A stretch of DNA of 64,000 nt from Candidatus Limnocylindrales bacterium. GTDB lineage: Bacteria > Patescibacteriota > Microgenomatia > Levybacterales > UBA12049. Shown in pieces: positions 12,534 to 44,349 of this stretch; the first letter of the stretch is position 1, and the number at the start of each line of letters is the position of its first letter. The stretch is from positions 20,222-84,221 of the forward strand of contig DATLDE010000012.1 of assembly GCA_035526025.1 (NCBI GenBank). The letters are read 5' to 3'. The notes beneath the pieces were generated by a model that did not search any database, was not told the DNA's origin, and saw only the letters and a list, made by a program, of their open reading frames with translations. Both the position numbers and the translations under genes were made by a program.

Positions 12534-12544
12534 GAAGGAGTTTT

Positions 12545-12820: not shown

Positions 12821-12853
12821 GGTAAACCTCGCCCGTATTTCTGCTTTTGCATT

Positions 12854-21733: not shown

Positions 21734-21734
21734 T

Positions 21735-22961: not shown

Positions 22962-23065
22962 GGCGTGCTAAAAAAGTGTATAACGTGAAAAATAGCAATG
23001 CAACTCACACAAAGTAGGTCAAACGAATCATGTTTTGAGGCTAGCGTGTGAAAACTCAGAGGTGA

Positions 23066-23488
23066 TTATTTGCAACCGCCAGTGTTAATCTGGTTGATGT
23101 CTGTAATGCAATCTTTGGAGTTGGTGATATATCCTATGAAGTATATAATTGCAAAAGAAGACATGATAACAATTGTGCCTATTATGGCGTACGTCATAAT
23201 TTGTCTAGCCGCCTGGACTTGCTTTGGGTCCCCACCTGAGGTGACCAATTTAATTCCTGAGTAGATAATAAGTACCAGCGCAACAGCGCCAGCAAACATA
23301 AGAAATGCAGTAACTACGTTTTGAAATATAACAGGCACGCAGCGGAGGCTCGCAACCTCCGTAGTTTTGCCTGAGGTTGTTATTTTGTCGGTGCAGCCTG
23401 ACCAGTCTTTGAACTGCGCAGCAGCAGGCTGTGGTATTGCTGCGGAAATTAAAAAAGCTATAGCAAATGCTAAAAATGTATTTTTCAT
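23066..23488 (-). CDS. Putative T4SS pilin (VirB2/TrbC-like): signal peptide + two hydrophobic helices
   Basis: 140 aa; cleavable signal (AAIPQPAAA-QF), ~40-aa spacer, then helix-loop(GGDPKQVQAARQ)-helix topology typical of VirB2 pilins; first gene of the operon. Confidence 0.4.
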   Translation of the reverse strand: MKNTFLAFAIAFLISAAIPQPAAAQFKDWSGCTDKITTSGKTTEVASLRCVPVIFQNVVTAFLMFAGAVALVLIIYSGIKLVTSGGDPKQVQAARQIMTYAIIGTIVIMSSFAIIYFIGYITNSKDCITDINQINTGGCK

Positions 23489-23529: not shown

Positions 23530-25743
23530 TTATGGGGATACTTTGTATATTTTAGTATTTTGACTTTGGTAAATAATTTTACTTAACTTCTGAAATTTTT
23601 GCTCAGACAAGGCAGGGTATTTTTGATACTCTAGTGTTCCTATGAAAACGTATTCTACGTCGTACTTTTTAAGTAAAGCCTGAGCCTCTTTTAAATCTAA
23701 TGTTTCATAAAGAGTTTTAATCTCAGCAATTCTGGGGGAGGGGATATCGTAAGTTCCCCGCCAAAGCCATTCGTGAACAGTCCACCCAAGAACAGTCGGC
23801 AGGCCTGTGTTTGCAGATACTCTTGCATAATCAGTGTATGAATCGCCTTGTGCTTCAAGAATTATCGGTTGCTTGGCAACATTTTTTCTTAACCATTCTA
23901 TTGCTTTAAAATCATCCGGATACAGATTTTTAAGATACTTTGTGCCATCAAGCCCCGCAGGTTTCTTAAATTTACCCTTCTCGTCTTTTTGATCAAGCCC
24001 GTAATATGAGTTAATTGCAAGGTATGGATATGTCATGACAAGAGAGATTAGACCAATAACCAATAACAGATAGCTAATAGTTAATAACTTTTTTCCTAGA
24101 TTTATTTTCTTAAGCTTAACACTTGATAGTATTCTGACAATTATATATCCGCATGAAACAGAGAGCATAATGAAGGACTGAAATACAAGCTTGAACATGG
24201 TATTGGCGCGGTAGTGGGCCGGGTAAATATCTTTAAGGTAAATAAATTCAGGCAGGATAATGAGAAATGTCGAAAGCAATATCAGAAGTAAAACAAATGT
24301 ATCTGTTGGGAGAAGTTTTTTTGTGCGATTGATAAAAACCAGAAAAGATATAACAAAAAAATAGAAAAAACCATAGAGTATTAACAGCTGCCACCAGGGT
24401 GAATGTTGACAAAAGTTTTGTTCAAATAAAAATGGACCTATTTTACCGATTTTGGTTAAGAATTCCGGCGCACATAAAATTCCCATGCCAGAGGTAAACG
24501 GTTTGAAAAAGTAATTATAGGGAAGTGAAAATAGCGCAAGGCTTACTGAAGTGATAAAAACTGAAAGAAAAAATACTACTAGATTTTTGTGATAAATCGT
24601 AAATAGAACAAGTATAGATAGAAGCAGGTAAATTCCTCCGTCCCAGGCATTGGTCATATACATAATAGCAAGAAGAAAACCGAGCAGGAGCAGGCCGTAG
24701 ATTCGTTGGTCGAAATATGATAATAATCCCATTCTTGCGTTTTTCTGAACCTGAGAAGAATCAGATTTGGGTTTGGAAATCTCGGAGTTAATAAAGAGCG
24801 ATAGAAGAACAGCTATAGTTAAGAGAACAAATGGGATGTCAAGTACATGTCCATGAAGATCGGCAACTACCCAGGAGTATATTGGAAATTCATGTATCGT
24901 ATTGTGGATAAAACGCGTTGCATTCGGGTACCAATATGAATTCGGGAAAGTAACCGGGAGAAAAGGAAGATCCCAGAAGGGTACTGGTTTGTCATTTGTG
25001 TAGGGTTTGAAAAAACCATAGACAATATGGAGATTTCCTGCAAAAGTTACAAGAAGGGCCGTCAAGAGTCCTGAAACAAATCTTTTTGCTTCTGAGATTT
25101 TTTCACTTTTTTTCATAAAGCTATAGATATTGGCACCTAGTGAAAATGTTTGGGTAAAGCAAAAGGCAAAAATGGTTGAAAGCATTAAATTAAATGTAAT
25201 ATTTGGTGAAAGCGCGCTAATTCTGGTCAAGACCGCAGTTACTAAGTGGCCGAAATAATAATAATTAATAAAAAGCGGTGTCAGCCACATGTCTTTTGGT
25301 GGGAAATAGTCGCTTCTGAGAATCGAGTTTATAAATCCATAATCCATGTATTTCTCAAGACCGTGAATGTCCGGATTAAAAGAGTGAATGTATGCCCACA
25401 GGAATAAGGTCGCCAGGAATAGTAGTTCTTCAAATACAAATATTAAGAAGTTCTGTTTGATAACCAAAAATAAATCTCTTTTACCTGGAGTCAATCCGTA
25501 TATCAAGCTCGCAATTAGAAAAAACATCAGCCAGGAGTTAATTTCGGTAAAGGGTAGGATATGAAGAATTCCAAGTAAAAGAATTACATAAGTCAGGATG
25601 CATAGGCTTAATAATTTGGAAAAAATATATCCTTTGTCAAAGAAGTTTTTAAACAGCAGAAAGGTTAAAGGCAAAAATCCTGTCCCTAGTATAAGGATTG
25701 CCAACCACCATTGTAGAATTGAGCAAATATCAGACGGAAGCAT
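23530..25743 (-). CDS. Chlor_Arch_YYY-domain (DUF2298-like) polytopic membrane protein, putative GT-C-type glycosyltransferase
   Basis: 737 aa, >15 TM, contains the hallmark YYYxG motif (FINYYYFGHL) and a C-terminal soluble domain. Confidence 0.55.
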   Translation of the reverse strand: MLPSDICSILQWWLAILILGTGFLPLTFLLFKNFFDKGYIFSKLLSLCILTYVILLLGILHILPFTEINSWLMFFLIASLIYGLTPGKRDLFLVIKQNFLIFVFEELLFLATLFLWAYIHSFNPDIHGLEKYMDYGFINSILRSDYFPPKDMWLTPLFINYYYFGHLVTAVLTRISALSPNITFNLMLSTIFAFCFTQTFSLGANIYSFMKKSEKISEAKRFVSGLLTALLVTFAGNLHIVYGFFKPYTNDKPVPFWDLPFLPVTFPNSYWYPNATRFIHNTIHEFPIYSWVVADLHGHVLDIPFVLLTIAVLLSLFINSEISKPKSDSSQVQKNARMGLLSYFDQRIYGLLLLGFLLAIMYMTNAWDGGIYLLLSILVLFTIYHKNLVVFFLSVFITSVSLALFSLPYNYFFKPFTSGMGILCAPEFLTKIGKIGPFLFEQNFCQHSPWWQLLILYGFFYFFVISFLVFINRTKKLLPTDTFVLLLILLSTFLIILPEFIYLKDIYPAHYRANTMFKLVFQSFIMLSVSCGYIIVRILSSVKLKKINLGKKLLTISYLLLVIGLISLVMTYPYLAINSYYGLDQKDEKGKFKKPAGLDGTKYLKNLYPDDFKAIEWLRKNVAKQPIILEAQGDSYTDYARVSANTGLPTVLGWTVHEWLWRGTYDIPSPRIAEIKTLYETLDLKEAQALLKKYDVEYVFIGTLEYQKYPALSEQKFQKLSKIIYQSQNTKIYKVSP

Positions 25744-26291
25744 TATTGTTTATCATTGAATATCATCTTGATTTTGGAAATTGCAAAGATATTCTCTGAA
25801 ATAACTTTATCAATCTGATCCTGATTAAGCCAAAAAAATTTTGTTTTTACGTTGTATTTTGCAACGTGCTTGAGCAGAGACAGGTCGTCATCAACATAAA
25901 TATTGAGCCTAAGTCTCTTAATAACATCATTTTTGAATTCATGAGGCTGTTGATTGCCGAAATTGAAATACAGTTCATCAAATACCTTGTCCAGATCATA
26001 ACGTTTGACGAGCTTTAGAGTTCTTTTTTCTAAAAATTTAAAACGGCTTGAGATAAGATAAAGCTTATTGTTTTTTTTGGGGATGTTTCTAAGAAATTCA
26101 AGATTCTCTTTGATAGCAGGACGAAGAAGCGGAAAATGGCTGATTCTTCTAAATACTTGTTCAGGATAGGCAGGTATTCTGTAAAGCAAGCCACCATTGT
26201 CCTTTTTTTTATATAATTTATCAATTAATTTGGGCGAGACAAGAGGGGGATAGTCAATAAAAACTTTATCTAAGTCAAAGCCAATATTCAT
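25743..26291 (-). CDS. HAD-superfamily hydrolase-like protein
   Basis: N-terminal FDLDKVF (DxDx[TV] motif I), ISSR (motif II) and YVDDD (motif IV-like). Confidence 0.45.
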   Translation of the reverse strand: MNIGFDLDKVFIDYPPLVSPKLIDKLYKKKDNGGLLYRIPAYPEQVFRRISHFPLLRPAIKENLEFLRNIPKKNNKLYLISSRFKFLEKRTLKLVKRYDLDKVFDELYFNFGNQQPHEFKNDVIKRLRLNIYVDDDLSLLKHVAKYNVKTKFFWLNQDQIDKVISENIFAISKIKMIFNDKQ

Positions 26292-26296
26292 AGTTA

Positions 26297-27340
26297 TTAA
26301 AATCGTGAAATTAGATTTAGTATCTTGAAATTCCAGCCAACTCTGTGTGTATTGCCGATTTTTCCATGAACACTTTTTCTATTCTGCTTGTACCAGAGAT
26401 AACTCTCAAGAAACAGATCCTGATTTGATTTTTTAGGCTGCCAGTGCAAAAGTTTTTTTGCTTTTTCAACTGAAACATACGAATCAACAGGCATAGTTTT
26501 GTAATGCCAGGCCGCAATTGGTGAAAGGCGTAGGACCTCAAGCGCTTGAAGAATGAACTGGGATGGCAAGGTAGGAAGCCCAGTGATTTTTGATTTGGAC
26601 TTAGTTTGCTTAATTACATATCCCAAGTCAGATTTCCATGTACCGAATTTTTCAGCTCCTATGTTGAAAATCTCGCCATTTACACGTGTTGTTAGTGCTT
26701 TTTCTATGGCATCAGCAATATCTGTAACTGCCAGTAGTTGATATTTATTATTTCCATCTCCAAGTATAAAAACCCGTTTGTCAGTATAGATTGCCTCAAA
26801 CCACAACTCAAAAACCCCTAGTCTTTCAGTTCCCAGGAAAGTTTTTGGACGGATGATATTTACTTGCAGGCCCTTTTTCTGATACTCCATGCATAGCTTT
26901 TCTCCCTCAATTTTTGATATACCATAGTGTCCGATTGGGTCAAGGGGTGATGTTTCGGTTTCTGGGAGGTGTTTGGGGACACCATAGACAGCTGTACTGG
27001 AGATGAAAACAAGACGTTTTATCTTATTTTTTAAGGCAGATGATAATATGTTTCTTGTGCCATCAATATTTACTGAAAATATTACTTTTTTATCAACTTG
27101 GATGGGAAGAGCGGCCGCTGCGTGAACTATATAATCCTGGCCAATCAAGGCTTTGTTAATTATTTTGGAATCTCTTATGTCACCTAGTACAACTTTTACC
27201 TTGCCAATCAAATCTTCCGCGTCTAGTTCTGCTAGGTCAAAAAGTGTAACAACGTACTTTTCTTTTAAAAACTTACGGGCTAAATGAACGCCCAAAAATC
27301 CCGTTCCGCCTGTAATGAGAACCTTTTTTGTCATGTGCAT
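26297..27340 (-). CDS. NAD-dependent epimerase/dehydratase (extended SDR)
   Basis: KKVLITGGTGFLGVHLARKF Rossmann motif and catalytic YGISK (YxxxK). Confidence 0.8.
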   Translation of the reverse strand: MHMTKKVLITGGTGFLGVHLARKFLKEKYVVTLFDLAELDAEDLIGKVKVVLGDIRDSKIINKALIGQDYIVHAAAALPIQVDKKVIFSVNIDGTRNILSSALKNKIKRLVFISSTAVYGVPKHLPETETSPLDPIGHYGISKIEGEKLCMEYQKKGLQVNIIRPKTFLGTERLGVFELWFEAIYTDKRVFILGDGNNKYQLLAVTDIADAIEKALTTRVNGEIFNIGAEKFGTWKSDLGYVIKQTKSKSKITGLPTLPSQFILQALEVLRLSPIAAWHYKTMPVDSYVSVEKAKKLLHWQPKKSNQDLFLESYLWYKQNRKSVHGKIGNTHRVGWNFKILNLISRF

Positions 27341-27401
27341 TCATTGTACTATTTTGGGGATTGCTGAAGCAAGAGAGGCATCTCTGAAATTAATTTAAAA
27401 A

Positions 27402-29096
27402 CTATTTTGTTTTCAAAATTACCTTGTCAAACAGTTCCATGTTTTTGTAAAACACTTTTTCACTACTCATTAAGTATTGGGTTGAATAATCGTTCAAAAT
27501 GCTCTCAGAAGATAAGTTAGTGAAATTCTGAGGAAGGACGATTAGAATATATGATTCGGAGGCATTTCTGGTGAGCAGCTCTTTAAGTTGTTCTGCGGAT
27601 GTAATGTCAATTATCTGATGCTTTTGAGTAAGATAGGGAAGAGGGTGTACACTGTTAATGGCTGGCCAAACAGTATTGCCAAGGAAAAAGGTAATTGTAG
27701 GTCTATCAACCGGAGCATTGATAATCTTTTGTGCCTCCCACGCACGAAACTCATTGATATAAAGTGTTTTTTCCCAAATGTTTTGAACGAAGTATAGCTG
27801 CAAATTGTAGATTGCAAAACCAACACATATCATGACAACAAATCCTTTTGCTATTTGTTTTCCAAGGGTTTTTTGTATCAATTGGGCAGCTTTGGTTATT
27901 CCACTGGCGGTAAGTAAGATAATGATCGGTACAACAGACATTAAGCGGTGAGTGTAGTTGATCTCTGTAAGCAATGCGCTATTGAAAAAAGGAATACCCA
28001 AAATTGCAGCAATTAAGAGGAGGAAATTGGCATTTTTTATATTTCTAATCACAAAATAAAGCCCGATTAAAAATAGTAATGAAAAGGGCAGAACAAGAAA
28101 CGGCCCACCATAATGATAATGAAAATTGATCGGCTCATAAATATATGCCAGAAGAGAGTGCGCATAATTTGTAATCAAATGTAAAAATTCATTTCCCGCG
28201 CTTGTAACCTGCGCAGTTCCAGCTGCAAATGCTTCAGTAGGTCTGGTCTTGAAAACTACGAGTTCAGGCCCGATAGCGATTAGAAAGAAAGAAAGAAAAG
28301 TGATTATTGAGCGGAGGCGATTGGTTTGTGACCTTTGAGACATAATGAAGATTATCGTTGTTAGTAATACGATCGCTCTTAAACCGCTATAGAAATGAAG
28401 CCCAAATCCAAGCGTTATTGCAAGTAAGATAATGGAATAAATCGAGCGGCGTTGTATATAGACAGAAAAGACGAGTAAAATCACAAGCGCATAAAAACTG
28501 TCAAAAAGATTAAGAAACTCAGTGCGGCTGAAATGAATATGGACATGATATGTAGCAAGAAGAAGCATCGCAACAAGCCCTGTTTTTTTATCAAACAATT
28601 TTTTGGCAAGAAAATATATGAGGATTATCGAACAAACCCCAAAGAATGCTGAGAAAAAGCGGACTTTTAACACGGGGTTACTAAAAAGCAGATGCGGAAT
28701 AGTGGATAAAGCAAAAAAGAAATTATTAATTCCGGCATAGTATCCAAAAAAATCAGCTAGTTCCCCTGTTAAGATTTTTTGGGGAAAAAATCCGGTATCT
28801 TTTGCTTCATCATGGGTCAATATGGGAATTGTGCTGAGGCTTGCAAATCGGACTAAAATGCCAAGCAGTAAGATGCTTAAAAAATCCCAATGCTTTCTGA
28901 GTAATTTTTTCAGATGGAATTTTTGAGGCAGGAAGCTTGGCAGCTTTTCATTATGGAGTATAAAGCCCAGGGAATAGACAATGGATATGAGCCAAAGCAT
29001 CAGAGAGGGAAGAGAGCGTGTAGGATTTTGGGAATATAAAAAAATTGAGAGAAAAGACGAGAGAAGAATGACAGACAGAAAGAGTATATTTCCCAT
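27402..29096 (-). CDS. GT-C fold glycosyltransferase (family 39 / ArnT-PMT-like), paralog 1
   Basis: 564 aa, ~12 TM N-terminal half plus C-terminal soluble domain; architecture of polyprenol-P-sugar dependent GT39/GT83 enzymes. Confidence 0.5.
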   Translation of the reverse strand: MGNILFLSVILLSSFLSIFLYSQNPTRSLPSLMLWLISIVYSLGFILHNEKLPSFLPQKFHLKKLLRKHWDFLSILLLGILVRFASLSTIPILTHDEAKDTGFFPQKILTGELADFFGYYAGINNFFFALSTIPHLLFSNPVLKVRFFSAFFGVCSIILIYFLAKKLFDKKTGLVAMLLLATYHVHIHFSRTEFLNLFDSFYALVILLVFSVYIQRRSIYSIILLAITLGFGLHFYSGLRAIVLLTTIIFIMSQRSQTNRLRSIITFLSFFLIAIGPELVVFKTRPTEAFAAGTAQVTSAGNEFLHLITNYAHSLLAYIYEPINFHYHYGGPFLVLPFSLLFLIGLYFVIRNIKNANFLLLIAAILGIPFFNSALLTEINYTHRLMSVVPIIILLTASGITKAAQLIQKTLGKQIAKGFVVMICVGFAIYNLQLYFVQNIWEKTLYINEFRAWEAQKIINAPVDRPTITFFLGNTVWPAINSVHPLPYLTQKHQIIDITSAEQLKELLTRNASESYILIVLPQNFTNLSSESILNDYSTQYLMSSEKVFYKNMELFDKVILKTK

Positions 29097-29794
29097 TATT
29101 GTGCTCTTCTTAATTTATACAATCCTAAAATGTTCCGCAAGGCGATATCGAAAATCTTATTGGATTTGTAAACTTGGGTGCTGCCATTGAGTCGCTCTCT
29201 GTGGTTGATGGGGAGTTCATGGACTGCTATATTTTTCTTTACACACATACCGATAAACCCCCACCAAAAGCCTTCTTTTAGAAAACGTAAGTAGGGAATG
29301 TGGGGATGAACCGTTGCTTTTTTAAATAACACAAAAGGGGCACTGGGATCATGGATGTTATTGGGAAAGAGAAAAGTAAATAATTGTTTAAATGCCTTCG
29401 AAAATAACTTTCGCTGAAGTGGGTCAGCTCTATTTGTACGGTGCCCAATCAGAATTGGCGCTTTATGTTTTTTATCCCAAAATTTCGTGAAATCCTTAGG
29501 GTCACACTGACCGTCAGAATCAATACAGAGAATATACTCAGACTTCGCAGCTACAATTCCATCAATAACCGCGCCACCATATCCTCTGCGCTTTTGCTTC
29601 TGGCTAAGTATAATAGGGAATTTTTTACCTAATTTCTTAAGTAACTCTTTTGTTCCGTCCGTTGATCCGTCCTCACAAATTACAAAAGAAAAAGAAAGTT
29701 TTTGCTGCTTAAGCATTTGTTGCCATTCCTTAAGGACTGTTTCAATCGTATCTTTTTCATTATAAACCGGTAAGATGATATTTAATTTATACAT
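29096..29794 (-). CDS. GT2 polyprenol-phosphate glycosyltransferase (DPM1/ArnC/GtrB-like)
   Basis: ILPVYNEKDTIETVL ... CEDGSTDGT ... IDSDGQCDP (GT2 DxD-containing motifs); 232 aa. Confidence 0.8.
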   Translation of the reverse strand: MYKLNIILPVYNEKDTIETVLKEWQQMLKQQKLSFSFVICEDGSTDGTKELLKKLGKKFPIILSQKQKRRGYGGAVIDGIVAAKSEYILCIDSDGQCDPKDFTKFWDKKHKAPILIGHRTNRADPLQRKLFSKAFKQLFTFLFPNNIHDPSAPFVLFKKATVHPHIPYLRFLKEGFWWGFIGMCVKKNIAVHELPINHRERLNGSTQVYKSNKIFDIALRNILGLYKLRRAQ

Positions 29795-29797
29795 GTC

Positions 29798-30841
29798 CTA
29801 GAGGGTCTCCACCTGTAATGGTTTTTCGCTGATAAACCATTCAATTGTGCTCTCAAGCCCGCGTCTTAGATCATACTGCGGCTGCCACCTGAGAATCTTT
29901 TTGGCTTTTGTGTTATTAAGTGCCCGTGTCTTCACTCCTTCCGGTTTGGTTTTATCAAATATTATTTTTTTAGGGTGCCAATTTATAATATCAAAAATCA
30001 TTTCCACCACTTCTTTTATAGTATAACGGGTGCTCGTGCCAAGATTGATTACATCACCATTTGTGATTTTCTCACAAGCGGCAAGGGTTCCGGATGCTAT
30101 GTCATCAACATAGGTGAAATCACGGTCTTGATTGCCCGAACCCCACACGATATATGGATCCTGCCGCTCCACTGCGCGTCTTATAAGCATGATTATTGCA
30201 TGGGTGTCGTTTTCCCAAGGGCCATAGGCTGTTACATAGCGTGCCCCCGATCCCTTCAGTCCATACTGTTTGTTATATGCTTTTAGGGTCATTTCTCCCA
30301 TTAATTTTGCCCATCCATATTCCTGGTCTGCATTTGCCCAGTTATTTTTAATTGCGTCAGTTTCTTTTAACAAATAAGTTGAGTCATATTCTTTTTGTAA
30401 ATCATGAGGGTAAACACATGCACTGGATGCAAAAAATACCCTGTCAATGCCACAGGCAGAAGAAGCTTTTATGACATTTTGGTTTATTGCAAAACCCTCT
30501 GAGCAATCCGCAGGATGGGTGTCAATATAGCCGCGGCCGCCAAAATTGGCTGCCAGGTGGAAGACAATATCGTGGTCTTTGATTGTTTCAATGGCAACTG
30601 AAAAATGTTCATAATTGGCATTAACAAACCGGTGGCCTTTATTGGCTGATAATCCTGTCTTTGTTTTTCTCCATTTGAGGTCATTTTCTTTCCAAACTCT
30701 CTGAATATTTTGCAGGCTACCAGATGACAGATTGTCACCGATTGTTGTTATAGCACCTTTTTTAATTAGCTGGTTAATAAGGGCTGATCCGATAAAGCCC
30801 GCACCACCGGTTACCAACACCCGCTTTCCTTCATAGAACAT
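29798..30841 (-). CDS. NAD-dependent epimerase/dehydratase (nucleotide-sugar modifying SDR)
   Basis: KRVLVTGGAGFIGSALINQL and catalytic YGWAK (YxxxK). Confidence 0.8.
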   Translation of the reverse strand: MFYEGKRVLVTGGAGFIGSALINQLIKKGAITTIGDNLSSGSLQNIQRVWKENDLKWRKTKTGLSANKGHRFVNANYEHFSVAIETIKDHDIVFHLAANFGGRGYIDTHPADCSEGFAINQNVIKASSACGIDRVFFASSACVYPHDLQKEYDSTYLLKETDAIKNNWANADQEYGWAKLMGEMTLKAYNKQYGLKGSGARYVTAYGPWENDTHAIIMLIRRAVERQDPYIVWGSGNQDRDFTYVDDIASGTLAACEKITNGDVINLGTSTRYTIKEVVEMIFDIINWHPKKIIFDKTKPEGVKTRALNNTKAKKILRWQPQYDLRRGLESTIEWFISEKPLQVETL

Positions 30842-30857
30842 ATCAGATCATTATAGA

Positions 30858-32558
30858 TTATCTTTTCTTGAAAATCATTACTTTCGGATGGTCATAGACT
30901 GTAAATGATTCATCTGCGCTTTCGTCATTGATTGGGATATTGAAAATCGGGATGTTTGGGTAATTTGTGAATTCTGCAACTTTTTGAAAGGGGGAATTTC
31001 CGGCAAACAGATTTTTGTAATAAGTTGCAGTCATGGGAAAGCAGCTATTTATAGGCAAGGACCTGCAGTCAGTTAATTTAAGAAGGGGCGTGTAGAGTCT
31101 GTTGGAGGCAATTATCACGTAATCAGCTTGCTGAAGCTGGGTATTTATCTGTGCCCACTTCATTTCAGTATCCGGGTCATAGAGATTAAGAGTTAACATT
31201 TGGTAATTTGACTGAATAGCAAGTGGCAATCCGTCGTCCCAGTGTTCAATTGCAATGACTTTTCCAACCGGGATATTTTGCCTAATCCAGAAAGTTGCAT
31301 CAACTCTGGTATTATTTCTGGTGTAAATATTTAAAAAAGTCAAAGGCCATATTACGCTTATAACTAAAAACAAATAACCAACAACAATACGAGTGTTTTT
31401 GGATTGGATGCTAACAATAATTCTATAAACTAATAATGCGGCGAACAATGCAAGGAGCGGATAGAGGGGCAGCATGTAGCGCATGAATCCTACCGAGAAT
31501 CTTCCAACAACAATTAAGTAAGATAGGAAAAATACAAAAATAATAAATTCTTTTGCAAATTGGGAATTGCGTTCTTTTTTGAAAATGAGAAACGTAAAGT
31601 AAATTAAACCTGAGAATGCGAGAGTGCCAAGTACCGGGCCTAGTCCCCAGAAGAAAACATTTTTAAGTTCATAGATATAGGGAATTTTTCCTACATACTG
31701 AAGAGTATAGGGAAAATAAAATGGGTTTTTGGTAAGTTCTGATTGCTGGAGGGTTTGGGACCAGAAGCTTTGGAAATCTATCAAAGCGTAGGGTTCAAAG
31801 AATGCAAAGGTTAAGAAAGTTACTAACACGATAGCTACGCCATGCGTAAGAATACGTTTTATGGAAGCAGGCATAAGAGGGAGCCAGTGCTTAATTTTAT
31901 GGGGACTTTTCATAAATATCAAAAGAAAATCGGCTGTCAGAGTGAGCCCGATTGATAAAATTAAAACAACTGCGCTTATTTTTGTCGCAAGCGCTAAGCC
32001 AAATAAAAATCCTACCATCAGTGATCTGGTAAGCGAAGGCTTTTCATAAAAGCGCAAAAGTGAATAAAGCGTTGCGAGGGTAAAGCAGGTCAGAAGAGTA
32101 TCAACTGCGAAGAAGTGGGAAAGCTGGATTGGCAGGACGCTTATTGTGTAGAAAAAAGCCGCCAATAGACCTGAAGGTGTATTGAATAATTTGCGGGCAA
32201 TTTTATAGATTAAAAAAACCGAAAAAAGATCAGCAAGAGCGGACAACACCCGTCCAACAAGATGGAGTGAGGGATAATGACTAAGTGTGGGATCCAAAAC
32301 GCTTAAAGAGTCTCCTGTGACACGCAGGAGATACATAGGGAAAGATCCGTAAGCGAAGAATTTAGGATTCCAGGAGCTTTGGGGAGAAAGAAAGTAATTG
32401 ACGTTATTTGGAAATTTTAATTTATCAACTGCCATGAGTATGGCCCGTTCATCAGGATGCAATTGATGCCCGCTATCCCAATTGATATTATAAAAGCGGA
32501 AAGTCGCCGCAAGGAGAAGAATTAAAACTAGAATTAACTTATCTTTGGAAAATTTCAT
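30858..32558 (-). CDS. GT-C fold glycosyltransferase (family 39-like), paralog 2
   Basis: 566 aa polytopic membrane protein with a DE-containing first loop (LHPDERAIL, as in the PMT/ArnT DE motif) and a C-terminal soluble domain. Confidence 0.55.
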   Translation of the reverse strand: MKFSKDKLILVLILLLAATFRFYNINWDSGHQLHPDERAILMAVDKLKFPNNVNYFLSPQSSWNPKFFAYGSFPMYLLRVTGDSLSVLDPTLSHYPSLHLVGRVLSALADLFSVFLIYKIARKLFNTPSGLLAAFFYTISVLPIQLSHFFAVDTLLTCFTLATLYSLLRFYEKPSLTRSLMVGFLFGLALATKISAVVLILSIGLTLTADFLLIFMKSPHKIKHWLPLMPASIKRILTHGVAIVLVTFLTFAFFEPYALIDFQSFWSQTLQQSELTKNPFYFPYTLQYVGKIPYIYELKNVFFWGLGPVLGTLAFSGLIYFTFLIFKKERNSQFAKEFIIFVFFLSYLIVVGRFSVGFMRYMLPLYPLLALFAALLVYRIIVSIQSKNTRIVVGYLFLVISVIWPLTFLNIYTRNNTRVDATFWIRQNIPVGKVIAIEHWDDGLPLAIQSNYQMLTLNLYDPDTEMKWAQINTQLQQADYVIIASNRLYTPLLKLTDCRSLPINSCFPMTATYYKNLFAGNSPFQKVAEFTNYPNIPIFNIPINDESADESFTVYDHPKVMIFKKR

Positions 32559-33130
32559 GACTTCAAACTTGTGGTTTTCGGTTTTGTTATTAGTAAAACC
32601 ATCAATAAATTAATAATTACAATGTAAAGAGGATATGAAAAATCTTTAATTGCATATGCGGAAAGTGCAAGCAGGTTGAAAGCTCCTGCGACAGAATCTA
32701 GCAGGAAAAAACTCCATACTTCTGTATTTGGTTTGTGATAAGTTTTGATAATTGTTGGAATCATGCCCGTAAAGTCTGCGAAAATGGCAAAATACAACGC
32801 GATCACTGGATTGTTTGTTGTTTGCCATAAAATAATTCCAGCAATAGCGATAATCAGACAGGCTACATCGGTTTTTGTCCATCCACCCATTCCATACTTA
32901 AAACTAAGTACAAAAACAATAATTGATTGTAATAGCGAAACCCCAGCAAGCCAAACTGCAACATTGTTATGCTGGGCTATTAATGAGGCTGCTGCAAGAG
33001 TATTAATTAGAAGCAGAACAAATCGAGTAGTGCGATGTGGCTTCGCATCGCCTCTTAAAATAGCTTTGGAGTAAATGATTGGAGAGATTACAGGGAGAGC
33101 GGTGCTTATTATTAGGAAAATTGTTTTCAT
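32555..33130 (-). CDS. Small polytopic membrane protein (6 TM), function unknown
   Basis: 191 aa hydrophobic protein, translationally coupled between two GT-C genes. Confidence 0.4.
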   Translation of the reverse strand: MKTIFLIISTALPVISPIIYSKAILRGDAKPHRTTRFVLLLINTLAAASLIAQHNNVAVWLAGVSLLQSIIVFVLSFKYGMGGWTKTDVACLIIAIAGIILWQTTNNPVIALYFAIFADFTGMIPTIIKTYHKPNTEVWSFFLLDSVAGAFNLLALSAYAIKDFSYPLYIVIINLLMVLLITKPKTTSLKS

Positions 33131-33150
33131 CTTACTACAAATTGTAGCAT

Positions 33151-34959
33151 TTATTTGCTGGCTTTTTTAAATATCATTACCGTTGGGCGGTCAAAAACCA
33201 TTGCAGTTTCTTCAAATCTAAATACAGGGTCGTTAAGGTAGGTGATGCGGCAGAAAATATCACATGGTGTTTGATATATCTTTTCCCATTGTTCGCTATT
33301 TATTAATTCGGAATAGAACAAATGTCCATTGGGGAATTTAGCCCTTTTTGGCAAACGGGAAATGAGAAGTCTTTGGCTTGGTAAAATCATATATTCTGTT
33401 GAGCTCAAATCTTCTTTGAGTTTTTGTTGCGTAAACTCAGGTGAGTTATTGTCCAGCTCATAAAAATTAAACATATTAATAGGATCGCTAAAATTAAAGG
33501 GTATCAGTCCCAAATCATAAGGTTCACTCATAACCTTAGAACTAAAAGGTATATTTAATTTTGCAAATTCACTAGCAATAACTCTTGTGTCCGGTCTTGC
33601 AAAAGCTGTTATAAAATATGAAACTCCGAACAGAATATTTAAACCTAAAAAAATACTAAATACTAAATACCTAATTCTTAATACTTGTTTCTTTCTATCC
33701 ACCAAATCCCATAAGTGCGCAAACGCAAGGGATAGCGTTAAGTACATGAATGGGAGCGCGGGTACTATGTAGCGGGTCCATTTGGCAAAAAGAACCGCTT
33801 GAGGTAAGAAAAGGGTTAAGAAATAAAAATTAAGAAGTAAGAGCGGCACGCTTTTGGTCTTAGCCGCTTGGAATAATAGATACAAGAATGCTGGCACAAA
33901 CATGGCTGTGAGTAGAGGATTTAAAATGAATGGGAAAATCCTATTAAATTGAAAAATAATCGGAATTGTGTCGTAAAACCCTTGGGTATAAAAAACAGGA
34001 AGTGAGCCGAGGGCGAGACCCGATTCATACTTCATGCTATTAAGAAATGATTGATAGTCAAAGTGGACAAAGGGATTGCTGATAAAATAAGTTGCTGTCG
34101 CAACGGCAGCAAAAAATAATATACGGATTATAGCTTTAGTAAAGCGTTTCATGTGGAGAGATAATGTGTTTTTTGGGTCATTATGTTTTGTTCGAAAAGT
34201 TGCATGGTAATATTGAAAATCCTTGTAAAGAATAGCAATAATTGGCAAAGGAAGGATCAGAATGTGAGAAATTTTTGTGGCAATAAGTATCCCGCTTATT
34301 ATCGCGAGAAGAAAAATATTGGATGCAGTAAGCTTCTCTATGCAGCGTAAGCAAAGCCAGAAGAGGAGTGTAGTGAAAAATGTCAGCCACATTTCAAACG
34401 TTCCGAAATGTGCGAATTGAATAAAGCCAACGCTAAATGCCGCAAAAAATGCAGCCAAAAGGCCAGTTTTCGTACCCTTCAAATTTTTACCGATAAGATA
34501 GAGCAAGGGGATAAGAAGTGTTGAAAAAAAAGCGGAGTAAACCCGACTTATGACTATTGCCTGCTCAAAAGATGATTTACAATCAGCAATTAACAATTGA
34601 CAGGACGTAAAAAAGTTATAAATAAGGCCAGAAAAATAAATTGCATAAATAGGCAAAGAACCATAAGCAAAAAAATTAGGATTCATTTGCTCTGGAAATC
34701 TTAACTGCGCAACGGCAGTTGCGATATTACGCTCATCAGGGTGGAAATAAAATGGAGCCCCCCAGTTGAGATTGTAAAATCTCAAACAAACACCGATTAA
34801 AATTAAAGCTAATAAGACAATGTTTATTATTCGAGCTTGTCGAGAACTTCTCGATTCGCTTTGCTCACTCGAAGAAGATGGCATAGACTTTATTGTAGTA
34901 GCTTTCAGCCTCGTTGACAAATGGCTTATAAGATGATATATTTCAGCCCATGGCATCAT
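33151..34959 (-). CDS. GT-C fold glycosyltransferase (family 39-like), paralog 3
   Basis: 602 aa with FHPDERNIA (DE motif in first loop), many TM, and a C-terminal soluble domain ending ...VMIFKK like paralog 2 (...VMIFKKR). Confidence 0.55.
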   Translation of the reverse strand: MMPWAEIYHLISHLSTRLKATTIKSMPSSSSEQSESRSSRQARIINIVLLALILIGVCLRFYNLNWGAPFYFHPDERNIATAVAQLRFPEQMNPNFFAYGSLPIYAIYFSGLIYNFFTSCQLLIADCKSSFEQAIVISRVYSAFFSTLLIPLLYLIGKNLKGTKTGLLAAFFAAFSVGFIQFAHFGTFEMWLTFFTTLLFWLCLRCIEKLTASNIFLLAIISGILIATKISHILILPLPIIAILYKDFQYYHATFRTKHNDPKNTLSLHMKRFTKAIIRILFFAAVATATYFISNPFVHFDYQSFLNSMKYESGLALGSLPVFYTQGFYDTIPIIFQFNRIFPFILNPLLTAMFVPAFLYLLFQAAKTKSVPLLLLNFYFLTLFLPQAVLFAKWTRYIVPALPFMYLTLSLAFAHLWDLVDRKKQVLRIRYLVFSIFLGLNILFGVSYFITAFARPDTRVIASEFAKLNIPFSSKVMSEPYDLGLIPFNFSDPINMFNFYELDNNSPEFTQQKLKEDLSSTEYMILPSQRLLISRLPKRAKFPNGHLFYSELINSEQWEKIYQTPCDIFCRITYLNDPVFRFEETAMVFDRPTVMIFKKASK

Positions 34960-35723
34960 CTATTGAAGCAATACTTGCATACCAACAAGCACAAGCAGAG
35001 CCTGACAGAGCTCAAGAGATTAGTCGGTTAAGAGATGTTATTAAGCGTGCAAAAGAAGATGGAGTGATCGATGAAAGCTTGCCCCCGACACGTGTAGCGA
35101 CAGCAAGGGAAGAAAGGGATAGGCTTACGCGGGAGGTTCAAGATCGCGCACGCGCAACCTATATGTTGTTAGAAGGTGTGAGAACTCCAACAAATGAGGA
35201 CATGGAGGCATTAAGAGGTGCTAGGGTTTTTGATATTGAACCTGTTTCGCTAGGGAGATTGGTAGAAGATCATCCAGAGCATTTTAAACGAGGTCAAATG
35301 GATATTCTTGATGGACGTAGACGTAGTGAGCTTAAGAATTATGTGCCCCCTGCAATGGCAGTTGTCATGAGATTTGATGTCCTAGATCATCCACGTGGTC
35401 AGGGTGAACAGGGTTTTCTAAAAGTTTTAAATGCAGTTGATGATTACTCAGAAAGTGAGATTAAGCCACGAAATGCTGATGCTCAGGCGGTTCTGTTGCC
35501 TGCATCAGCACTTGCTCAAATAGACATTAGCCTTGCGGCAGAAGGTAAGGCACTATTTTCCAGCCATTGCACGAGCGTATTAGATAATTATGGCGCTATG
35601 CGTATTGGGCGTGGTGGACCAGCGGGGAGATTGGTTGTAGGTGATTGGGTTGATGGGCTTGCGGGAGTCCATGTACGAATCACTCCTGGAATAGTATTTC
35701 CCAAAAATAGATCCTCCCAATAA
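34950..35723 (+). CDS. Hypothetical cytoplasmic Arg/Glu-rich protein encoded on a GC-rich (~46%) segment; probable horizontally acquired gene
   Basis: 257-aa ORF, the only long ORF in this segment. Compositionally distinct from flanking genes (R-rich rather than K-rich; GC well above the ~35% background). Confidence 0.45.
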   Translation: MASSIEAILAYQQAQAEPDRAQEISRLRDVIKRAKEDGVIDESLPPTRVATAREERDRLTREVQDRARATYMLLEGVRTPTNEDMEALRGARVFDIEPVSLGRLVEDHPEHFKRGQMDILDGRRRSELKNYVPPAMAVVMRFDVLDHPRGQGEQGFLKVLNAVDDYSESEIKPRNADAQAVLLPASALAQIDISLAAEGKALFSSHCTSVLDNYGAMRIGRGGPAGRLVVGDWVDGLAGVHVRITPGIVFPKNRSSQ

Positions 35724-35737
35724 TTCAGAGTTCTAAA

Positions 35738-36985
35738 TTATGAATTCTGAATTAGGTCTGCTACTTTTTCTCCCATCTCAATTGCGTAGTTGGTGCCGCG
35801 GTCCCATGGATAGACCATATCCATATTGGCGAGATAAACATTTTTAATTGGAGTTACAAATTCAGGTTTAATTCTTGAATAATTAATAGGAAAGACAGGT
35901 TGGGCGAAGTAGCCAAGGAACATTTCGTAGTCAATTATATTTTTTTTCAGATCATACTCAGGATTTATTCTTTGAAGATAGGGCGTGAACTTTTTGAGTA
36001 TTTCCTTTTTATCCATTTTCAAAAGCGGATGGTCAATCGGCAAATAATTTACAAGCCACATCAAATTTTGTCCACCGTAGTGCTTGGGATCTACAAAATT
36101 GGTATGCTGGACAACTCCGACAAAGGGAAATTCAGAATCACTGACATTTAGCCAGTAGCTTTTCTTAAGAAACTTTTCCTTTGTGACGAGAAGCATGTTA
36201 AAGGCATGAAGATGGGGGATTTGGTTGATTTTGTCTTTGTAGTGATCAGGCAAATCAGGGAACATTTTCACAAATACAGCAAGAGGCGTAGTGACAATTA
36301 CTTTGTCAAACTTAGATATTAATTCCGGATTAAATGATTTACCAAGATTTATTGTTGCACCGTTTTCCTTTATTTTCTCAGCCAATTTTTCAGATAGACT
36401 CTGGTATCCACCTCCCAGATAGCCCAAGGAAAAAGTCCTTTTGTAAATGCGTGCCCAGAACCAAGCCATGTTAACTGTTTCTGCAAAAGGGCCAAACTTA
36501 CCGTTTAGAAGTGGTTTCCATACTTTTTGCCACACCTCTTCTCCGTAGTATTTTCGGATCCAATCACGGGCCGTGGTTTTTTCAAATTTAACAGCTATTT
36601 GTGGGGGAATAGATTTTAGGACAAGGCTTACAAAGCCCAATCTGATTCTGGAGACAAACGAAAGCGGTTTGAGATTTAATATGTCAAAAGGTGAGTTTAG
36701 GGGATAGATTTTATTTTCCAAAAATACATCAGTCCTGGGTTTTTTGAAAAAAAGATCATCACCAAGGCCAACTTCTTTTATAAGATTTATTGCATAGCTA
36801 TCATTTGCAAACCAGTGGTGATAGTGTTTTTCCAAAGACCATTCCCAATTTTTATTTTTAAATCCTACCGCAAGCCCGCCAACTCTATTTTCTTTTTCAA
36901 AAACAGTGACGTCATGTCCTTTTTCTGTGAGCCTTAAAGCTGCCGTAAGGCCTGTAAAACCCGCTCCTATTATTGCAATTTTCAT
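35738..36985 (-). CDS. FAD-dependent oxidoreductase (amine-oxidase / UDP-galactopyranose-mutase-like superfamily)
   Basis: MKIAIIGAGFTGLTAALRL...VTVFEKENRVGGLA dinucleotide-binding motif; 415 aa. The UGM-like possibility rests on its position in the glycosylation cluster and is inference. Confidence 0.7.
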   Translation of the reverse strand: MKIAIIGAGFTGLTAALRLTEKGHDVTVFEKENRVGGLAVGFKNKNWEWSLEKHYHHWFANDSYAINLIKEVGLGDDLFFKKPRTDVFLENKIYPLNSPFDILNLKPLSFVSRIRLGFVSLVLKSIPPQIAVKFEKTTARDWIRKYYGEEVWQKVWKPLLNGKFGPFAETVNMAWFWARIYKRTFSLGYLGGGYQSLSEKLAEKIKENGATINLGKSFNPELISKFDKVIVTTPLAVFVKMFPDLPDHYKDKINQIPHLHAFNMLLVTKEKFLKKSYWLNVSDSEFPFVGVVQHTNFVDPKHYGGQNLMWLVNYLPIDHPLLKMDKKEILKKFTPYLQRINPEYDLKKNIIDYEMFLGYFAQPVFPINYSRIKPEFVTPIKNVYLANMDMVYPWDRGTNYAIEMGEKVADLIQNS

Positions 36986-38434: not shown

Positions 38435-38769
38435 TGTCCTTGTATTTGAAAAGAATCTTTTGGCGAAGGCAGTTGGGCAGGTGTGTCGGCCGAAGGGGAC
38501 GTTTGTATGGGTTGATTAGGATTAGTGCTCGCTGAGCCGCTTGCGGAATCAAGTTGGTATACTGGAATTACTTTTTTCCGAGTTTTAATCTTATCAAGTG
38601 ACTGGGTATTAAAAGCGGGATCAATTGGCGTGATTTGTAATTGTAAATCAGGTTCAATCGTTGAGTCCGCTCTGCCATGATAAATGTTAAAGCCTATCCA
38701 TAATGCAACAACTACAAATATCGATATTGAAATCCAAAGTAGGTCTTTTTGAGCTCTATTTTTTTTCAT
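38431..38769 (-). CDS. Small bitopic membrane protein downstream of pilO (possible PilP-like component)
   Basis: 112 aa, N-terminal TM, P/S/Q-rich C-terminal region; operonic with pilN-pilO. Confidence 0.35.
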   Translation of the reverse strand: MKKNRAQKDLLWISISIFVVVALWIGFNIYHGRADSTIEPDLQLQITPIDPAFNTQSLDKIKTRKKVIPVYQLDSASGSASTNPNQPIQTSPSADTPAQLPSPKDSFQIQGQ

Positions 38770-38785
38770 TTTTTTTTAGGTCAGA

Positions 38786-43244: not shown

Positions 43245-43316
43245 ATAGAAAGTAAAAGGGAGTTCCGCTATAATATTCTCATGTCTACAGTTCTCGGAGT
43301 ATTTGCGCATCCGGAT
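43245..43316 (+). repeat. Direct repeat copy B: native promoter/5' end of PIG-L deacetylase gene
   Basis: Pairs with 42626-42697. Confidence 0.8.
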
Positions 43317-43934: not shown

Positions 43935-43938
43935 CAGT

Positions 43939-44331: not shown

Positions 44332-44349
44332 AAAAGGTATAATAGGGAA

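Follow-up and report, generated by a model that had tools for sequence, protein, structure and literature searches.

A conserved multi-GT-C gene neighborhood near the chromosomal origin of Microgenomates, a candidate lipid-carrier-dependent glycosylation system

Introduction

We analyzed a gene cluster that encodes several GT-C-type membrane proteins together with putative sugar-modifying enzymes, located at positions 23530-36985 of a 64-kb stretch of contig DATLDE010000012.1 (hereafter the window, whose numbering is used throughout), and compared it with described systems in which carrier-linked sugars serve GT-C glycosyltransferases. The Gtr, Arn and PpgS-Rv3779 systems combine a GT2 polyprenyl-phosphate-sugar synthase with a small flippase and a GT-C enzyme. 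The mycobacterial decaprenyl-phospho-arabinose/arabinan pathway comprises Rv3806c, Rv3807c, DprE1, DprE2 and the Aft/Emb GT-C enzymes. Summaries of this arabinan pathway are available (PMC11127046; PMC10994848). In the widespread three-component pathway of extracytoplasmic pentofuranose addition described for Citrobacter youngae O1/O2 (Kelly et al. 2024; PMC11127046), a UbiA-type synthase makes polyprenyl-phosphate-ribose-5-phosphate from phosphoribosyl pyrophosphate (PRPP), and the 5-phosphate is removed by a HAD-type phosphatase, a step for which mycobacteria use Rv3807c, unrelated to HAD enzymes. Epimerization then takes place at the lipid stage, either by a short-chain dehydrogenase/reductase (SDR; ribose to xylose) or by DprE1/DprE2 (ribose to arabinose), and is followed by a flippase and GT-C transfer (PMC11127046). 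In Pseudomonas aeruginosa Pa5196, the GT-C enzyme TfpW uses a PPPRS-derived lipid-linked pentofuranose to arabinosylate type IV pilins (bioRxiv 10.1101/2020.04.19.049825).

Bacteria of the candidate phyla radiation (CPR) are ultra-small, with tiny genomes and a dependence on host-cell contact, and their surface covering is little known. Our literature searches, covering DUF2298, PRK07233, CPR glycosylation, CrtI-type archaeal polyprenol reductases and Microgenomates pili and glycosyltransferases, retrieved nothing on the present locus, which is of a known kind of system in a CPR variant undescribed in the searchable literature. From comparative sequence evidence we favor, with moderate confidence, the interpretation that it encodes a lipid-carrier-dependent extracytoplasmic glycosylation machine with multiple GT-C enzymes, fed by polyprenyl-phosphate sugars that probably include PRPP-derived pentofuranoses.

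Gene-neighborhood analysis

Eighty loci were collected around relatives of one of the GT-C proteins, GTC_B, and compared by BLAST and clustering; the loci spanning GTC_C to the DUF2298 gene, one per species-level genome, formed a set of 48, in which the presence of DUF2298 is given by selection. The relatives all belong to Microgenomates, namely Levybacteria, Daviesbacteria, Shapirobacteria, Gottesmanbacteria and Roizmanbacteria, and GTC_B relatives are encoded in more than 547 genomes. The core gene order recurs in the 48 species-level genomes, which represent several Microgenomates classes. GTC_C, GTC_B and DUF2298 are present in all 48 loci, and the gene for a flavin adenine dinucleotide (FAD) oxidoreductase occupies the slot upstream of GTC_C in 34. 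SDR1 was found in 40 loci and a DUF362 protein in the same slot in six, never both together; likewise, a gene for a HAD-like protein occurs in 38 loci and a PAP2 phosphatase takes its slot in eight, again never both. The SDR and phosphatase slots are thus conserved even where the gene family changes. In contrast with these genes, SDR2 and GT2 are absent from all 48 loci. The slot after GTC_B is variably filled by accessory PMT_2 genes of the GTC_A type, which occupy it in many loci, no close relatives of GTC_A itself having been found in a metagenome scan, and homologs of MP191, a 191-aa membrane protein, occur in 3 of the 48 loci, each time beside extra PMT_2 genes. By this presence and absence across the 48 loci, the cluster consists of a conserved core, composed of the FAD gene, GTC_C, GTC_B, SDR1 (or DUF362), the HAD-like gene (or PAP2) and DUF2298, and of an accessory block inserted into it, composed of MP191, SDR2, GT2 and GTC_A.

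The 347-aa DUF362 protein, which replaces SDR1 between GTC_B and the phosphatase gene, was seen across the collection in loci L042, L047, L051, L052, L054, L056, L059-L061, L066 and L071, and the replacement hints at a redox or epimerase-like role of DUF362 in the pathway.

From GTC_C to DUF2298, the final member of the gene string, the gaps between genes do not exceed 61 nt and three junctions overlap, the MP191 gene and the GTC_B start sharing 4 nt and the GT2 stop and GTC_A start sharing 1 nt. This tight spacing, the persistence across 48 genomes and the slot-wise non-orthologous replacement argue for a functional coupling beyond synteny. We also considered that these genes might be neighbors only through a gene order frozen near the origin, without forming a single system; the locus indeed lies between dnaA/dnaN and the EF-G/ribosomal operons, and the unrelated triosephosphate isomerase, UvrD, FemAB, MurJ and Lgt genes are also syntenic in subsets of loci. 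Such an explanation is highly improbable, however, in view of genes that overlap or are closely spaced on one strand, of functions that are all glycan-related, of a core that persists across classes while its flanks change, of slots refilled by other families of the same activity, and of the overlapping UbiA and GTC_C reading frames described below. Vertical inheritance of the locus across Microgenomates (CPR), with the window carrying the Levybacteria-type version, is the best explanation of this distribution.

GT-C proteins

GTC_A, GTC_B and GTC_C all scored above the PMT_2 cut-off of 26.1 bits (Table 1), and the PMT profile (PF02366) matched GTC_B only, with 30.2 bits against a cut-off of 22.7 and over model positions 86-219 of 245. 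GTC_B and GTC_C align with 27% identity over their full length (E = 4e-50), GTC_A being only remotely related to them (pairwise E = 0.005). The HPDER and VMIFKK motifs pointed out in GTC_B and GTC_C by the first-pass annotation of this DNA are indeed present in both. The recent duplication that it had deduced from them is contradicted by the low identity of the two proteins; since all 48 genomes contain separate orthologs of the one and of the other, their duplication is ancient, and the shared HPDER and VMIFKK stretches are, judging from their conservation, functional motifs. Across 27 homologs of GTC_B, the residues H34, P35, D36, E37 and R38 are invariant, and so is D556-H557-P558 near the C-terminus, with K559, I562 and F563 nearly so. 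The HPDER of GTC_C is located in loop 63-134, after the first transmembrane (TM) helix, and GTC_A has an HDE motif in loop 94-144. All three PMT_2 proteins thereby exhibit a D-E motif in the first long loop, following a TM helix that is preceded by a K/R-rich segment, and by the positive-inside rule this loop would lie outside the membrane, in the topology expected for GT-C enzymes.

The AlphaFold2 model of GTC_B (pLDDT 79, pTM 0.82) was searched against the PDB with Foldseek, and all 26 matches at E ≤ 1e-3 were GT-C enzymes, with TM-scores of 0.41-0.57. These comprised STT3/AglB (best, 8e-10), ALG12/ALG9, DPY19, Pmt4 (1.5e-5), PglB and ArnT, and AftD, Emb and AftA followed with weaker E-values. 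On the basis of this model, GTC_B is classified as a GT-C-fold glycosyltransferase, and so is GTC_C by its homology to GTC_B; the candidates did not fall into O-antigen ligase or transporter families. A polyprenyl-phosphate-linked sugar as the donor of these proteins is suggested by context, namely the GT2- and UbiA-type synthase genes adjacent to them in the window or in relatives. No PDB matches were obtained by sequence searching with GTC_A and GTC_B, and solved PMTs were not detected with the single GTC_B sequence, the best result with its family profile being Pmt2 at E = 0.17. PMTs are also not the closest structural neighbors of GTC_B, STT3/AglB ranking ahead of Pmt4, and a MIR domain is absent according to Pfam. 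Membership of the GT-C proteins in GT39 is therefore not established.

An additional feature of GTC_B is an invariant E-H-W-D-D at residues 438-442, where the C-terminal soluble domain begins, and this motif recalls the WWDYG motif of STT3/PglB/AglB; together with the oligosaccharyltransferase-like best structural matches, it could point to en-bloc transfer. The annotated start of GTC_C also deserves a comment, as the first 25 codons of the annotated form contain a promoter-like site on the minus strand (34920-34892). The protein collection lacks this long form, and both the K/R-rich segment and the first TM helix lie behind Met26, whose codon at nt 34884 is therefore probably the true start.

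The DUF2298 protein was described in the first-pass annotation as a YYYxG protein, and this call was confirmed by a TIGR03662 (Chlor_Arch_YYY) score well above the cut-off of 300.25 bits (Table 1), a DUF2298 match of 303 bits and the motif NYYYFGH at residues 160-166, of which Y161-Y163 and G165 are invariant in 28 homologs. It has at least 12 predicted TM segments and no relative in the PDB by sequence search. Its AlphaFold2 model (pLDDT 72.6) contains long low-confidence loops, and the only confident PDB matches retrieved by Foldseek were AftA (3.6e-4, probability 1.0) and ArnT (probability 0.97). Judging from this model, DUF2298 is a probable, not proven, fourth GT-C-like membrane enzyme.

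A different role has to be weighed for part of these proteins, as one or more of DUF2298, GTC_C and GTC_A might be flippases or scramblases instead of transferases, like the haloarchaeal Agl23, a PMT_2-like TIGR03663 protein reported to complement yeast rft1 and, in liposomes, to flip lipid-linked oligosaccharide (PMC11182771). The three PMT_2 proteins do show weak TIGR03663 matches (GTC_A 23.5, GTC_B 22.8 and GTC_C 18.6 bits), and no MATE, SMR or GtrA-type flippase was detected in the conserved core. These scores are nonetheless far below the cut-off of 126.25 bits, and the invariant acidic motif as well as the large, highly conserved, predicted extracytoplasmic domains fit catalysis, for which reason we regard the flippase role as quite unlikely; it would, moreover, be compatible with glycosyl transfer by the remaining GT-C proteins.

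Flavoenzyme, SDR1 and HAD-like protein

The FAD protein belongs over its full length to the amine-oxidase/protoporphyrinogen-oxidase/phytoene-desaturase superfamily, with 410.8 bits on NF005560/PRK07233 (cut-off 252), a family named "hypothetical protein", and 112.5 bits on Amino_oxidase over residues 10-412. Its family profile found protoporphyrinogen oxidase 1sez as the best PDB match (1.4e-14, over the N-terminal 173 residues), far ahead of UDP-galactopyranose mutase (UGM) 1i8t (1.3e-6). The first-pass annotation had suggested a UGM-like flavoenzyme; a UGM-like mutase was rejected here, since no GLF domain was detected, the UGM matches of the single sequence span only residues 2-63 in the N-terminal Rossmann region, and UGM stands well behind protoporphyrinogen oxidase and amine oxidases. 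From its position beside UbiA and GT-C genes, we propose that the FAD enzyme tailors the lipid-linked sugar. In a comparison with loci L001-L062, the FAD protein of the window is 75-86% identical to a small group of close relatives and 50-59% identical to Gottesmanbacteria proteins, and only 40-49% identical to the syntenic FAD protein of most Levybacteria, whose neighboring genes are 50-85% identical to those of the window. The pattern suggests two FAD lineages or a replacement of the FAD gene.

SDR1 matched Epimerase (145 bits) and 3Beta_HSD (78.9 bits), and its best NCBIfam model was HpnA, with 108.7 bits and far below the cut-off. Its PDB matches cover only residues ~6-250, the similarity to nucleotide-sugar enzymes ending at ~230-250. 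An earlier assignment of both SDRs to sugar nucleotides is consequently supported for SDR2 alone, which matches GDP-sugar enzymes over its full length, and not for SDR1, with its truncated matches and HpnA/3-beta-HSD types. We propose for SDR1 the role of an epimerase or reductase acting on a lipid-linked sugar.

The 182-aa protein gave no Pfam or NCBIfam match. The four HAD motifs are recognizable in its orthologs from the invariant D6, D8, K120, D134 and D135 and the nearly invariant S81, and its homologs showed weak matches solely to HAD families (Acid_phosphat_B, HAD_2, LNS2 and PNKP); a search of the PDB with the family profile returned no matches and thus no solved HAD protein. Because PAP2 replaces this protein in the same slot, the slot appears to need a phosphatase, and the 182-aa protein is best described as a predicted HAD-like phosphatase of a new family. 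HAD-UbiA fusions were looked for as evidence of a phosphoribose phosphatase, and fusions to GT4 were found instead, with the HAD-like part as the N-terminal domain of ~550-aa proteins and the remainder being a GT4 (GT-B) glycosyltransferase (P0389, P0392, P0398, P0402, P0413, P0439 and P0486). These fusions support a phosphatase coupled to glycosyl transfer and not specifically a phosphoribose phosphatase.

These three proteins could also be read as acting on the lipid carrier and not on the sugar, converting polyprenol into a dolichol-like alpha-saturated carrier, later used by the GT-C enzymes, through dephosphorylation, oxidation to the aldehyde, CrtI/RetSat-like reduction of the double bond and re-reduction. 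Phytoene desaturases do belong to the FAD superfamily, the best families of SDR1 act on lipids (HpnA, 3-beta-HSD and sterol-4-carboxylate dehydrogenase) and PAP2 enzymes typically act on lipid phosphates. DUF2298 is, in addition, shared with Archaea and Chloroflexi. For Chloroflexi, a neighborhood of DUF2298, PMT_2, a Rossmann protein and PMT_2 has been listed (PMC8756737). Carrier saturation is nevertheless distinctly improbable, as the PRK07233 family has no member of known function, the FAD gene stands repeatedly beside phosphoribosyltransferase-type UbiA genes, which points to a sugar pathway, no polyprenol kinase was found in the locus, and the literature search found no such bacterial pathway.

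UbiA genes in related loci

In 15 of the 80 loci, 9 of them in the 48-locus set, the gene directly upstream of GTC_C encodes a UbiA protein. The two genes overlap or stand within ~11 nt in relatives, with overlapping reading frames in at least seven Shapirobacteria-type loci. The FAD gene is adjacent to UbiA, or part of the same gene string, in L036, L057, L064, L082, L084, L086 and L087, and four Gottesmanbacteria loci illustrate these arrangements: Big_1, FAD, UbiA, PMT, GT2, SDR, PMT_2 and PMT_2 (L086); Big_1, FAD, UbiA, PMT, a 644-aa protein and GT2, then PMT_2 (L087); FAD, an acyltransferase, UbiA and PMT, then a GTC_B-like protein and GT2 (L084); and FAD, PilB, PilC, pilins, UbiA and PMT (L082). 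The PMT-like neighbor of UbiA is the counterpart of GTC_C both by position and by best hit. Eight UbiA proteins were tested, including those of core loci and those of L082, L084, L086 and L087, and all eight matched decaprenyl-phosphate phosphoribosyltransferase models over their full length with 150-224 bits, scores regarded as just below the cut-offs (207/234). The same proteins reached at most 66 bits on quinone-, heme- and chlorophyll-type models, and 133-166 bits on the generic UbiA model PRK08238.

Accessory block

GT2 has its closest PDB relatives in the Dol-P-Man synthase of Pyrococcus furiosus (5mlz, 8.5e-15), ArnC and GtrB, and a DxD motif (D92-S-D94) is visible in its sequence. It scored below the cut-offs of the NCBIfam models AglJ, ArnC, Dol-P-hexose transferase and PpgS (28-51 bits against 325-529), and no TM segment was predicted. 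GT2 is thus a candidate soluble Dpm1/ArnC/GtrB-like polyprenyl-phosphate sugar synthase, and genes of the same type occur in the Gottesmanbacteria versions L084, L086 and L087. SDR2, which shows the GxxGxxG and YxxxK motifs, has GDP-mannose 3,5-epimerase (2.7e-34) and GDP-fucose synthase as its best PDB matches, with alignments running to the C-terminus, and is likely a nucleotide-sugar epimerase or reductase. MP191 has seven predicted hydrophobic segments and a weak match to PnuC (E = 0.0069), and one of its homologs matched the KDEL receptor (E = 0.0011); it may, tentatively, be put forward as a candidate lipid-linked-sugar flippase. None of the equivalog thresholds that would name the sugar handled by the block was reached.

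Taken as a second, self-contained donor module of the Gtr/Arn type, the block would have SDR2 modify a nucleotide sugar, GT2 load it onto polyprenyl phosphate, MP191 possibly flip it and GTC_A transfer it. This fits well the sequence of modification, loading and transfer outlined in the first-pass annotation, which had cast the whole cluster as a single linear pathway through GT2. The conserved core does not follow that scheme: as GT2 and SDR2 are missing from all 48 core loci while the GT-C core, FAD, SDR1 and HAD-like genes persist, the conserved GT-C enzymes cannot depend on them. The linear scheme can be stated in full as both SDRs and the flavoenzyme modifying nucleotide sugars, GT2 loading them and all GT-C paralogs performing PMT-like protein O-glycosylation, and it draws on the resemblance of GT2 to Dol-P-Man synthase, ArnC and GtrB and of SDR2 to GDP-sugar epimerases, on the PMT/PMT_2 matches and the PMT-type DE motif of the GT-C proteins, and on the S/T/P-rich (Ser, Thr and Pro) membrane-anchored proteins encoded nearby. 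Besides the distribution of GT2 and SDR2, the flavoenzyme is not UGM-like, SDR1 has no recognizable nucleotide-sugar-binding C-terminal half, three or four distinct GT-C enzymes exceed what a PMT-type system needs, and the profile search retrieved no significant PMT relative in the PDB, the top structural matches being STT3/AglB. All these features combined render the linear pathway rather unlikely.

Proposed pathway

The multi-GT-C glycosylation machine favored here would operate in successive steps. A polyprenyl-phosphate sugar donor would be made at the cytoplasmic face; in relatives, the decaprenyl-phosphate phosphoribosyltransferase-type UbiA encoded upstream of GTC_C would produce polyprenyl-phosphate-ribose-5-phosphate, and we infer an equivalent step for the window. 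A phosphatase, either HAD-like or PAP2, would then take off the 5-phosphate, the FAD enzyme and/or SDR1 would alter the configuration of the sugar on the lipid, the donor would be flipped across the membrane, and the GT-C enzymes would add sugars successively to an extracytoplasmic acceptor. The general logic of lipid-carrier-dependent GT-C glycosylation, already proposed in the first-pass annotation, holds up in light of the exclusive GT-C matches of the GTC_B model, the D-E loop motif, the proximity of GT2 to Dol-P-Man synthase, ArnC and GtrB, and the full-length GDP-sugar match of SDR2.

Several observations speak against this pathway, most of them concerning the pentofuranose donor. No UbiA gene or remnant was found by BLAST and tblastn in the 64-kb window, including the gap between FAD and GTC_C, nor was a UbiA gene present in the 10 kb upstream of the window, and 30 of the 48 loci, accounting for most of the Levybacteria-type ones, have no UbiA within 10 kb; this genome must for that reason either encode its donor synthase elsewhere or use a different one. 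Within the 48-locus set, FAD (34 loci) and UbiA (9 loci) hardly ever occur together, only 1 locus having both. The FAD enzyme has an amine-oxidase fold and not FAD_binding_4 and is thus not homologous to DprE1, and SDR1 is an extended SDR and not a classical one like DprE2. The distant HAD-like relatives are fused to GT4 glycosyltransferases and never to UbiA, and the HAD-like protein does not match NF006088, a UbiA model of 482 positions in which a stretch of ~190 positions stands ahead of the UbiA part. With respect to the transfer steps, the TM-scores of DUF2298 to GT-C enzymes are low (0.31-0.40), an hhalign comparison of the DUF2298 and GTC_B families gave a probability of 4.7%, and the GT-C-like Agl23 has been reported as a flippase (PMC11182771). 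Lastly, in comparison with the C. youngae system, no MATE or SMR/GtrA flippase was found by Pfam in the interval.

A bolder extension of the proposed pathway, which we offer as a tentative possibility, is an unseen Microgenomates system of envelope glycan synthesis or protein glycosylation with PRPP-derived pentofuranoses, with three new GT-C families including DUF2298, for which this would be a first function, lipid-stage epimerization by the PRK07233 flavoenzyme, unrelated to DprE1, and the wall-anchored S/T/P-rich protein or the type IV pilus through which these episymbionts contact hosts as its target.

Candidate acceptors

The gene upstream of the FAD gene encodes a surface protein with a stalk rich in S, T and P (Table 1), and all 48 of its orthologs contain a 60-aa window with 50-82% S+T+P at ~78% of their length (background mean 27%, 95th percentile 35%). 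Several of them have LPxTG-like motifs ahead of the hydrophobic tail, and in 39 of the 48 loci the ortholog lies directly upstream of the FAD/UbiA slot. This surface protein, suggested as an acceptor in the first-pass annotation, is a plausible candidate. Type IV pilus alignment genes also travel with the locus, PilO being present in 37 of the 48 loci; no type IV pilin (class III) signal motifs were found in the window. In 30 of the 48 loci the gene after DUF2298 encodes an LCP-family ligase, which the window lacks at this position. Other membrane-anchored proteins of the window likewise have S/T/P-rich linkers. Candidate acceptors are therefore the S/T/P-rich wall-anchored protein, pilus proteins or a wall-linked glycopolymer.

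Two tandem paralogs on the minus strand (45448-47700 and 47715-49949), of 750 and 744 aa and 53% identical, are anchored by an N-terminal TM segment and contain a Pro/Thr-rich linker; they gave no Pfam match and are possible further surface proteins or glycosylation targets.

Locus layout and genomic setting

The eight open reading frames (ORFs) of the first-pass annotation were all recovered at their positions on the minus strand, with domain calls upheld by the Pfam and NCBIfam scores, and three genes that it had not listed were added, namely the HAD-like gene, MP191 and a plus-strand orphan ORF (Table 1).

Table 1. Features of the locus and of the adjoining surface-protein and pilus genes, in window coordinates
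Feature	Coordinates	Strand	Basis
DUF2298 / Chlor_Arch_YYY protein	23530-25743	-	TIGR03662 504.8 bits
HAD-like phosphatase candidate, 182 aa	25743-26291	-	conserved HAD motifs in orthologs
SDR1, extended SDR, 347 aa	26297-27340	-	Epimerase 145 bits
GTC_A	27402-29096	-	PMT_2 44.7 bits
GT2	29096-29794	-	Glycos_transf_2 77.9 bits
SDR2, extended SDR	29798-30841	-	Epimerase 157 bits
GTC_B	30858-32558	-	PMT_2 65.7 bits
MP191, 191-aa 7-TM membrane protein	32555-33130	-	predicted hydrophobic segments
GTC_C	33151-34959	-	PMT_2 30.3 bits
Orphan ORF, 257 aa (HUQ85582.1)	34950-35723	+	no Pfam match
FAD oxidoreductase (PRK07233 family)	35738-36985	-	NF005560 + Amino_oxidase
Surface protein: fn3/Big_6/Big_13, S/T/P-rich stalk, hydrophobic tail	37016-38434	-	Pfam
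PilN-like and PilO-like genes and 112-aa membrane protein	38431-39945	-	PilO 52.7 bits, PilN 18.5 bits

The cluster had initially been called an island. Its GC content (35-40%) equals that of the flanks and its core is syntenic in the 48 genomes, on which grounds a horizontally acquired island was rejected. The locus lies between dnaA/dnaN (12776-15475) and the EF-G/EF-Tu/ribosomal genes, in a window that also encodes yidC, jag and the S10/spc ribosomal operon. The origin region (11983-15475) has yidC and jag upstream, followed by dnaA (12776-14218) and dnaN (14369-15475), and the minimum of the cumulative GC skew, at 12-14 kb, coincides with dnaA. Because of these housekeeping neighbors, the position of the skew minimum and the uniform GC content, the cluster is a core chromosomal locus near the origin. 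No tRNA genes were found in the window, and Rfam gave no matches at the gathering score.

The 779-nt interval between the FAD gene and GTC_C is filled by the orphan ORF, which has a GC content of 44-47% against ~37% around it. The ORF has no homolog in any of the compared loci and forms a singleton cluster in the protein collection, where NCBI names it a hypothetical protein. Just upstream of it, at 34914-34942, is the site of the region that most resembles a promoter (11/12, with TG). In relatives, the FAD-GTC_C gap is occupied by UbiA or by other variable genes. This ORF is probably not part of the system and interrupts the cluster.

Directly downstream of DUF2298, a minus-strand block (18951-23488) resembles type IV secretion/conjugation genes, with a secretion-system pilin (23066-23488), a PrgI-family protein with CarboxypepD_reg, a TraC-like protein and a VirB4/TraG-type ATPase; most other Levybacteria have LCP ligase and triosephosphate isomerase genes at this position. 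Adjoining this block, a 504-aa protein (17417-18931, minus strand) has a long Gly/Ala/Lys-rich low-complexity N-terminus, one TM segment, DUF11 and a Cys-containing C-terminal region. Envelope-glycan genes also occur outside the locus (557-1738, 6200-8902, 9099-10607 and 43281-45447), comprising a weak match to "AZOBR_p60025 cell surface glycopolymer formation", a 900-aa DUF4012 protein, a Wzy_C/O-antigen-ligase-like protein, a PIG-L deacetylase and a GH18 hydrolase. The organism label given by NCBI ("Candidatus Limnocylindrales", Chloroflexota) conflicts with all homologs and with the synteny, which indicate Microgenomates (Levybacteria-like), and many related metagenome-assembled genomes are likewise oddly labelled (Gammaproteobacteria, Methylomirabilota and others).

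Comparison with known systems

The accessory block, with SDR2, GT2 and GTC_A and the nearby 7-TM protein, is organized like the Gtr/Arn systems, and it differs from them in a GT2 without membrane anchor and in a putative flippase that is neither GtrA- nor SMR-like. With the GT39 PMTs of eukaryotes and Actinobacteria, the locus shares the PMT/PMT_2 matches, the DE motif in the first loop, the NCBI name "glycosyltransferase family 39 protein" and the S/T/P-rich candidates nearby; unlike them, its GT-C proteins have no significant match to a solved PMT and no MIR domain, the GTC_B model is at least as close to STT3/AglB, and several paralogs are present. The presence of Chlor_Arch_YYY beside PMT_2-like proteins and of a Dpm1-like GT2, in the role of Agl22, recalls haloarchaeal Agl22/Agl23 and the TIGR03662/TIGR03663 pair, although the PMT_2 proteins described here are not members of the Agl23 family (18.6-23.5 bits, cut-off 126).

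The likeness to the TfpW system is one of role and gene context: PilN and PilO travel with the locus and L082 has PilB, PilC and pilins between FAD and UbiA; in contrast, the window has no pilin gene with a class III signal, nor any DprE1/DprE2 homologs. Residing near the origin in every Microgenomates genome examined, together with pilus and wall-anchored protein genes, the locus is likely important for the envelope or for attachment. It also gives DUF2298/Chlor_Arch_YYY a first functional context and provides one for the PRK07233 flavoenzymes and the new HAD-like family, with functions that can be tested.

The mycobacterial pathway exhibits the same succession of a synthase, a phosphatase, a flavin oxidase with an SDR reductase and several GT-C enzymes building a wall polymer. 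The resemblance extends to PAP2 (the Rv3807c family) in the phosphatase slot in eight loci, to the LCP ligase gene in 30 and to AftA as the best structural match of DUF2298. The proteins themselves are different, since the FAD protein belongs to Amino_oxidase/NAD_binding_8 and SDR1 is extended, leaving only the oxidase-plus-reductase logic in common with DprE1/DprE2, and the GT-C proteins are of PMT_2 and DUF2298 types with no sequence similarity to Aft/Emb. If the flavoenzyme does replace DprE1, the reaction, a validated drug target in tuberculosis, would have a second enzymatic solution.

The C. youngae system differs in possessing one GT136 enzyme where three to four GT-C proteins are conserved here, in having neither the PRK07233 flavoenzyme nor DUF2298, and in its UbiA gene, which is missing from the window; the HAD-like protein, for its part, is detectably similar to known HAD families in the motifs only, and the organism here is a CPR bacterium without O antigen. 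The roles nonetheless match those of C. youngae at each of the steps for which a candidate was found, with UbiA in relatives, a HAD-like or PAP2 phosphatase, an SDR epimerase (optional there) and extracytoplasmic GT-C enzymes. In this reading, the recently defined pathway of lipid-linked pentofuranoses, known from Proteobacteria and Actinobacteria, would reach into the CPR.

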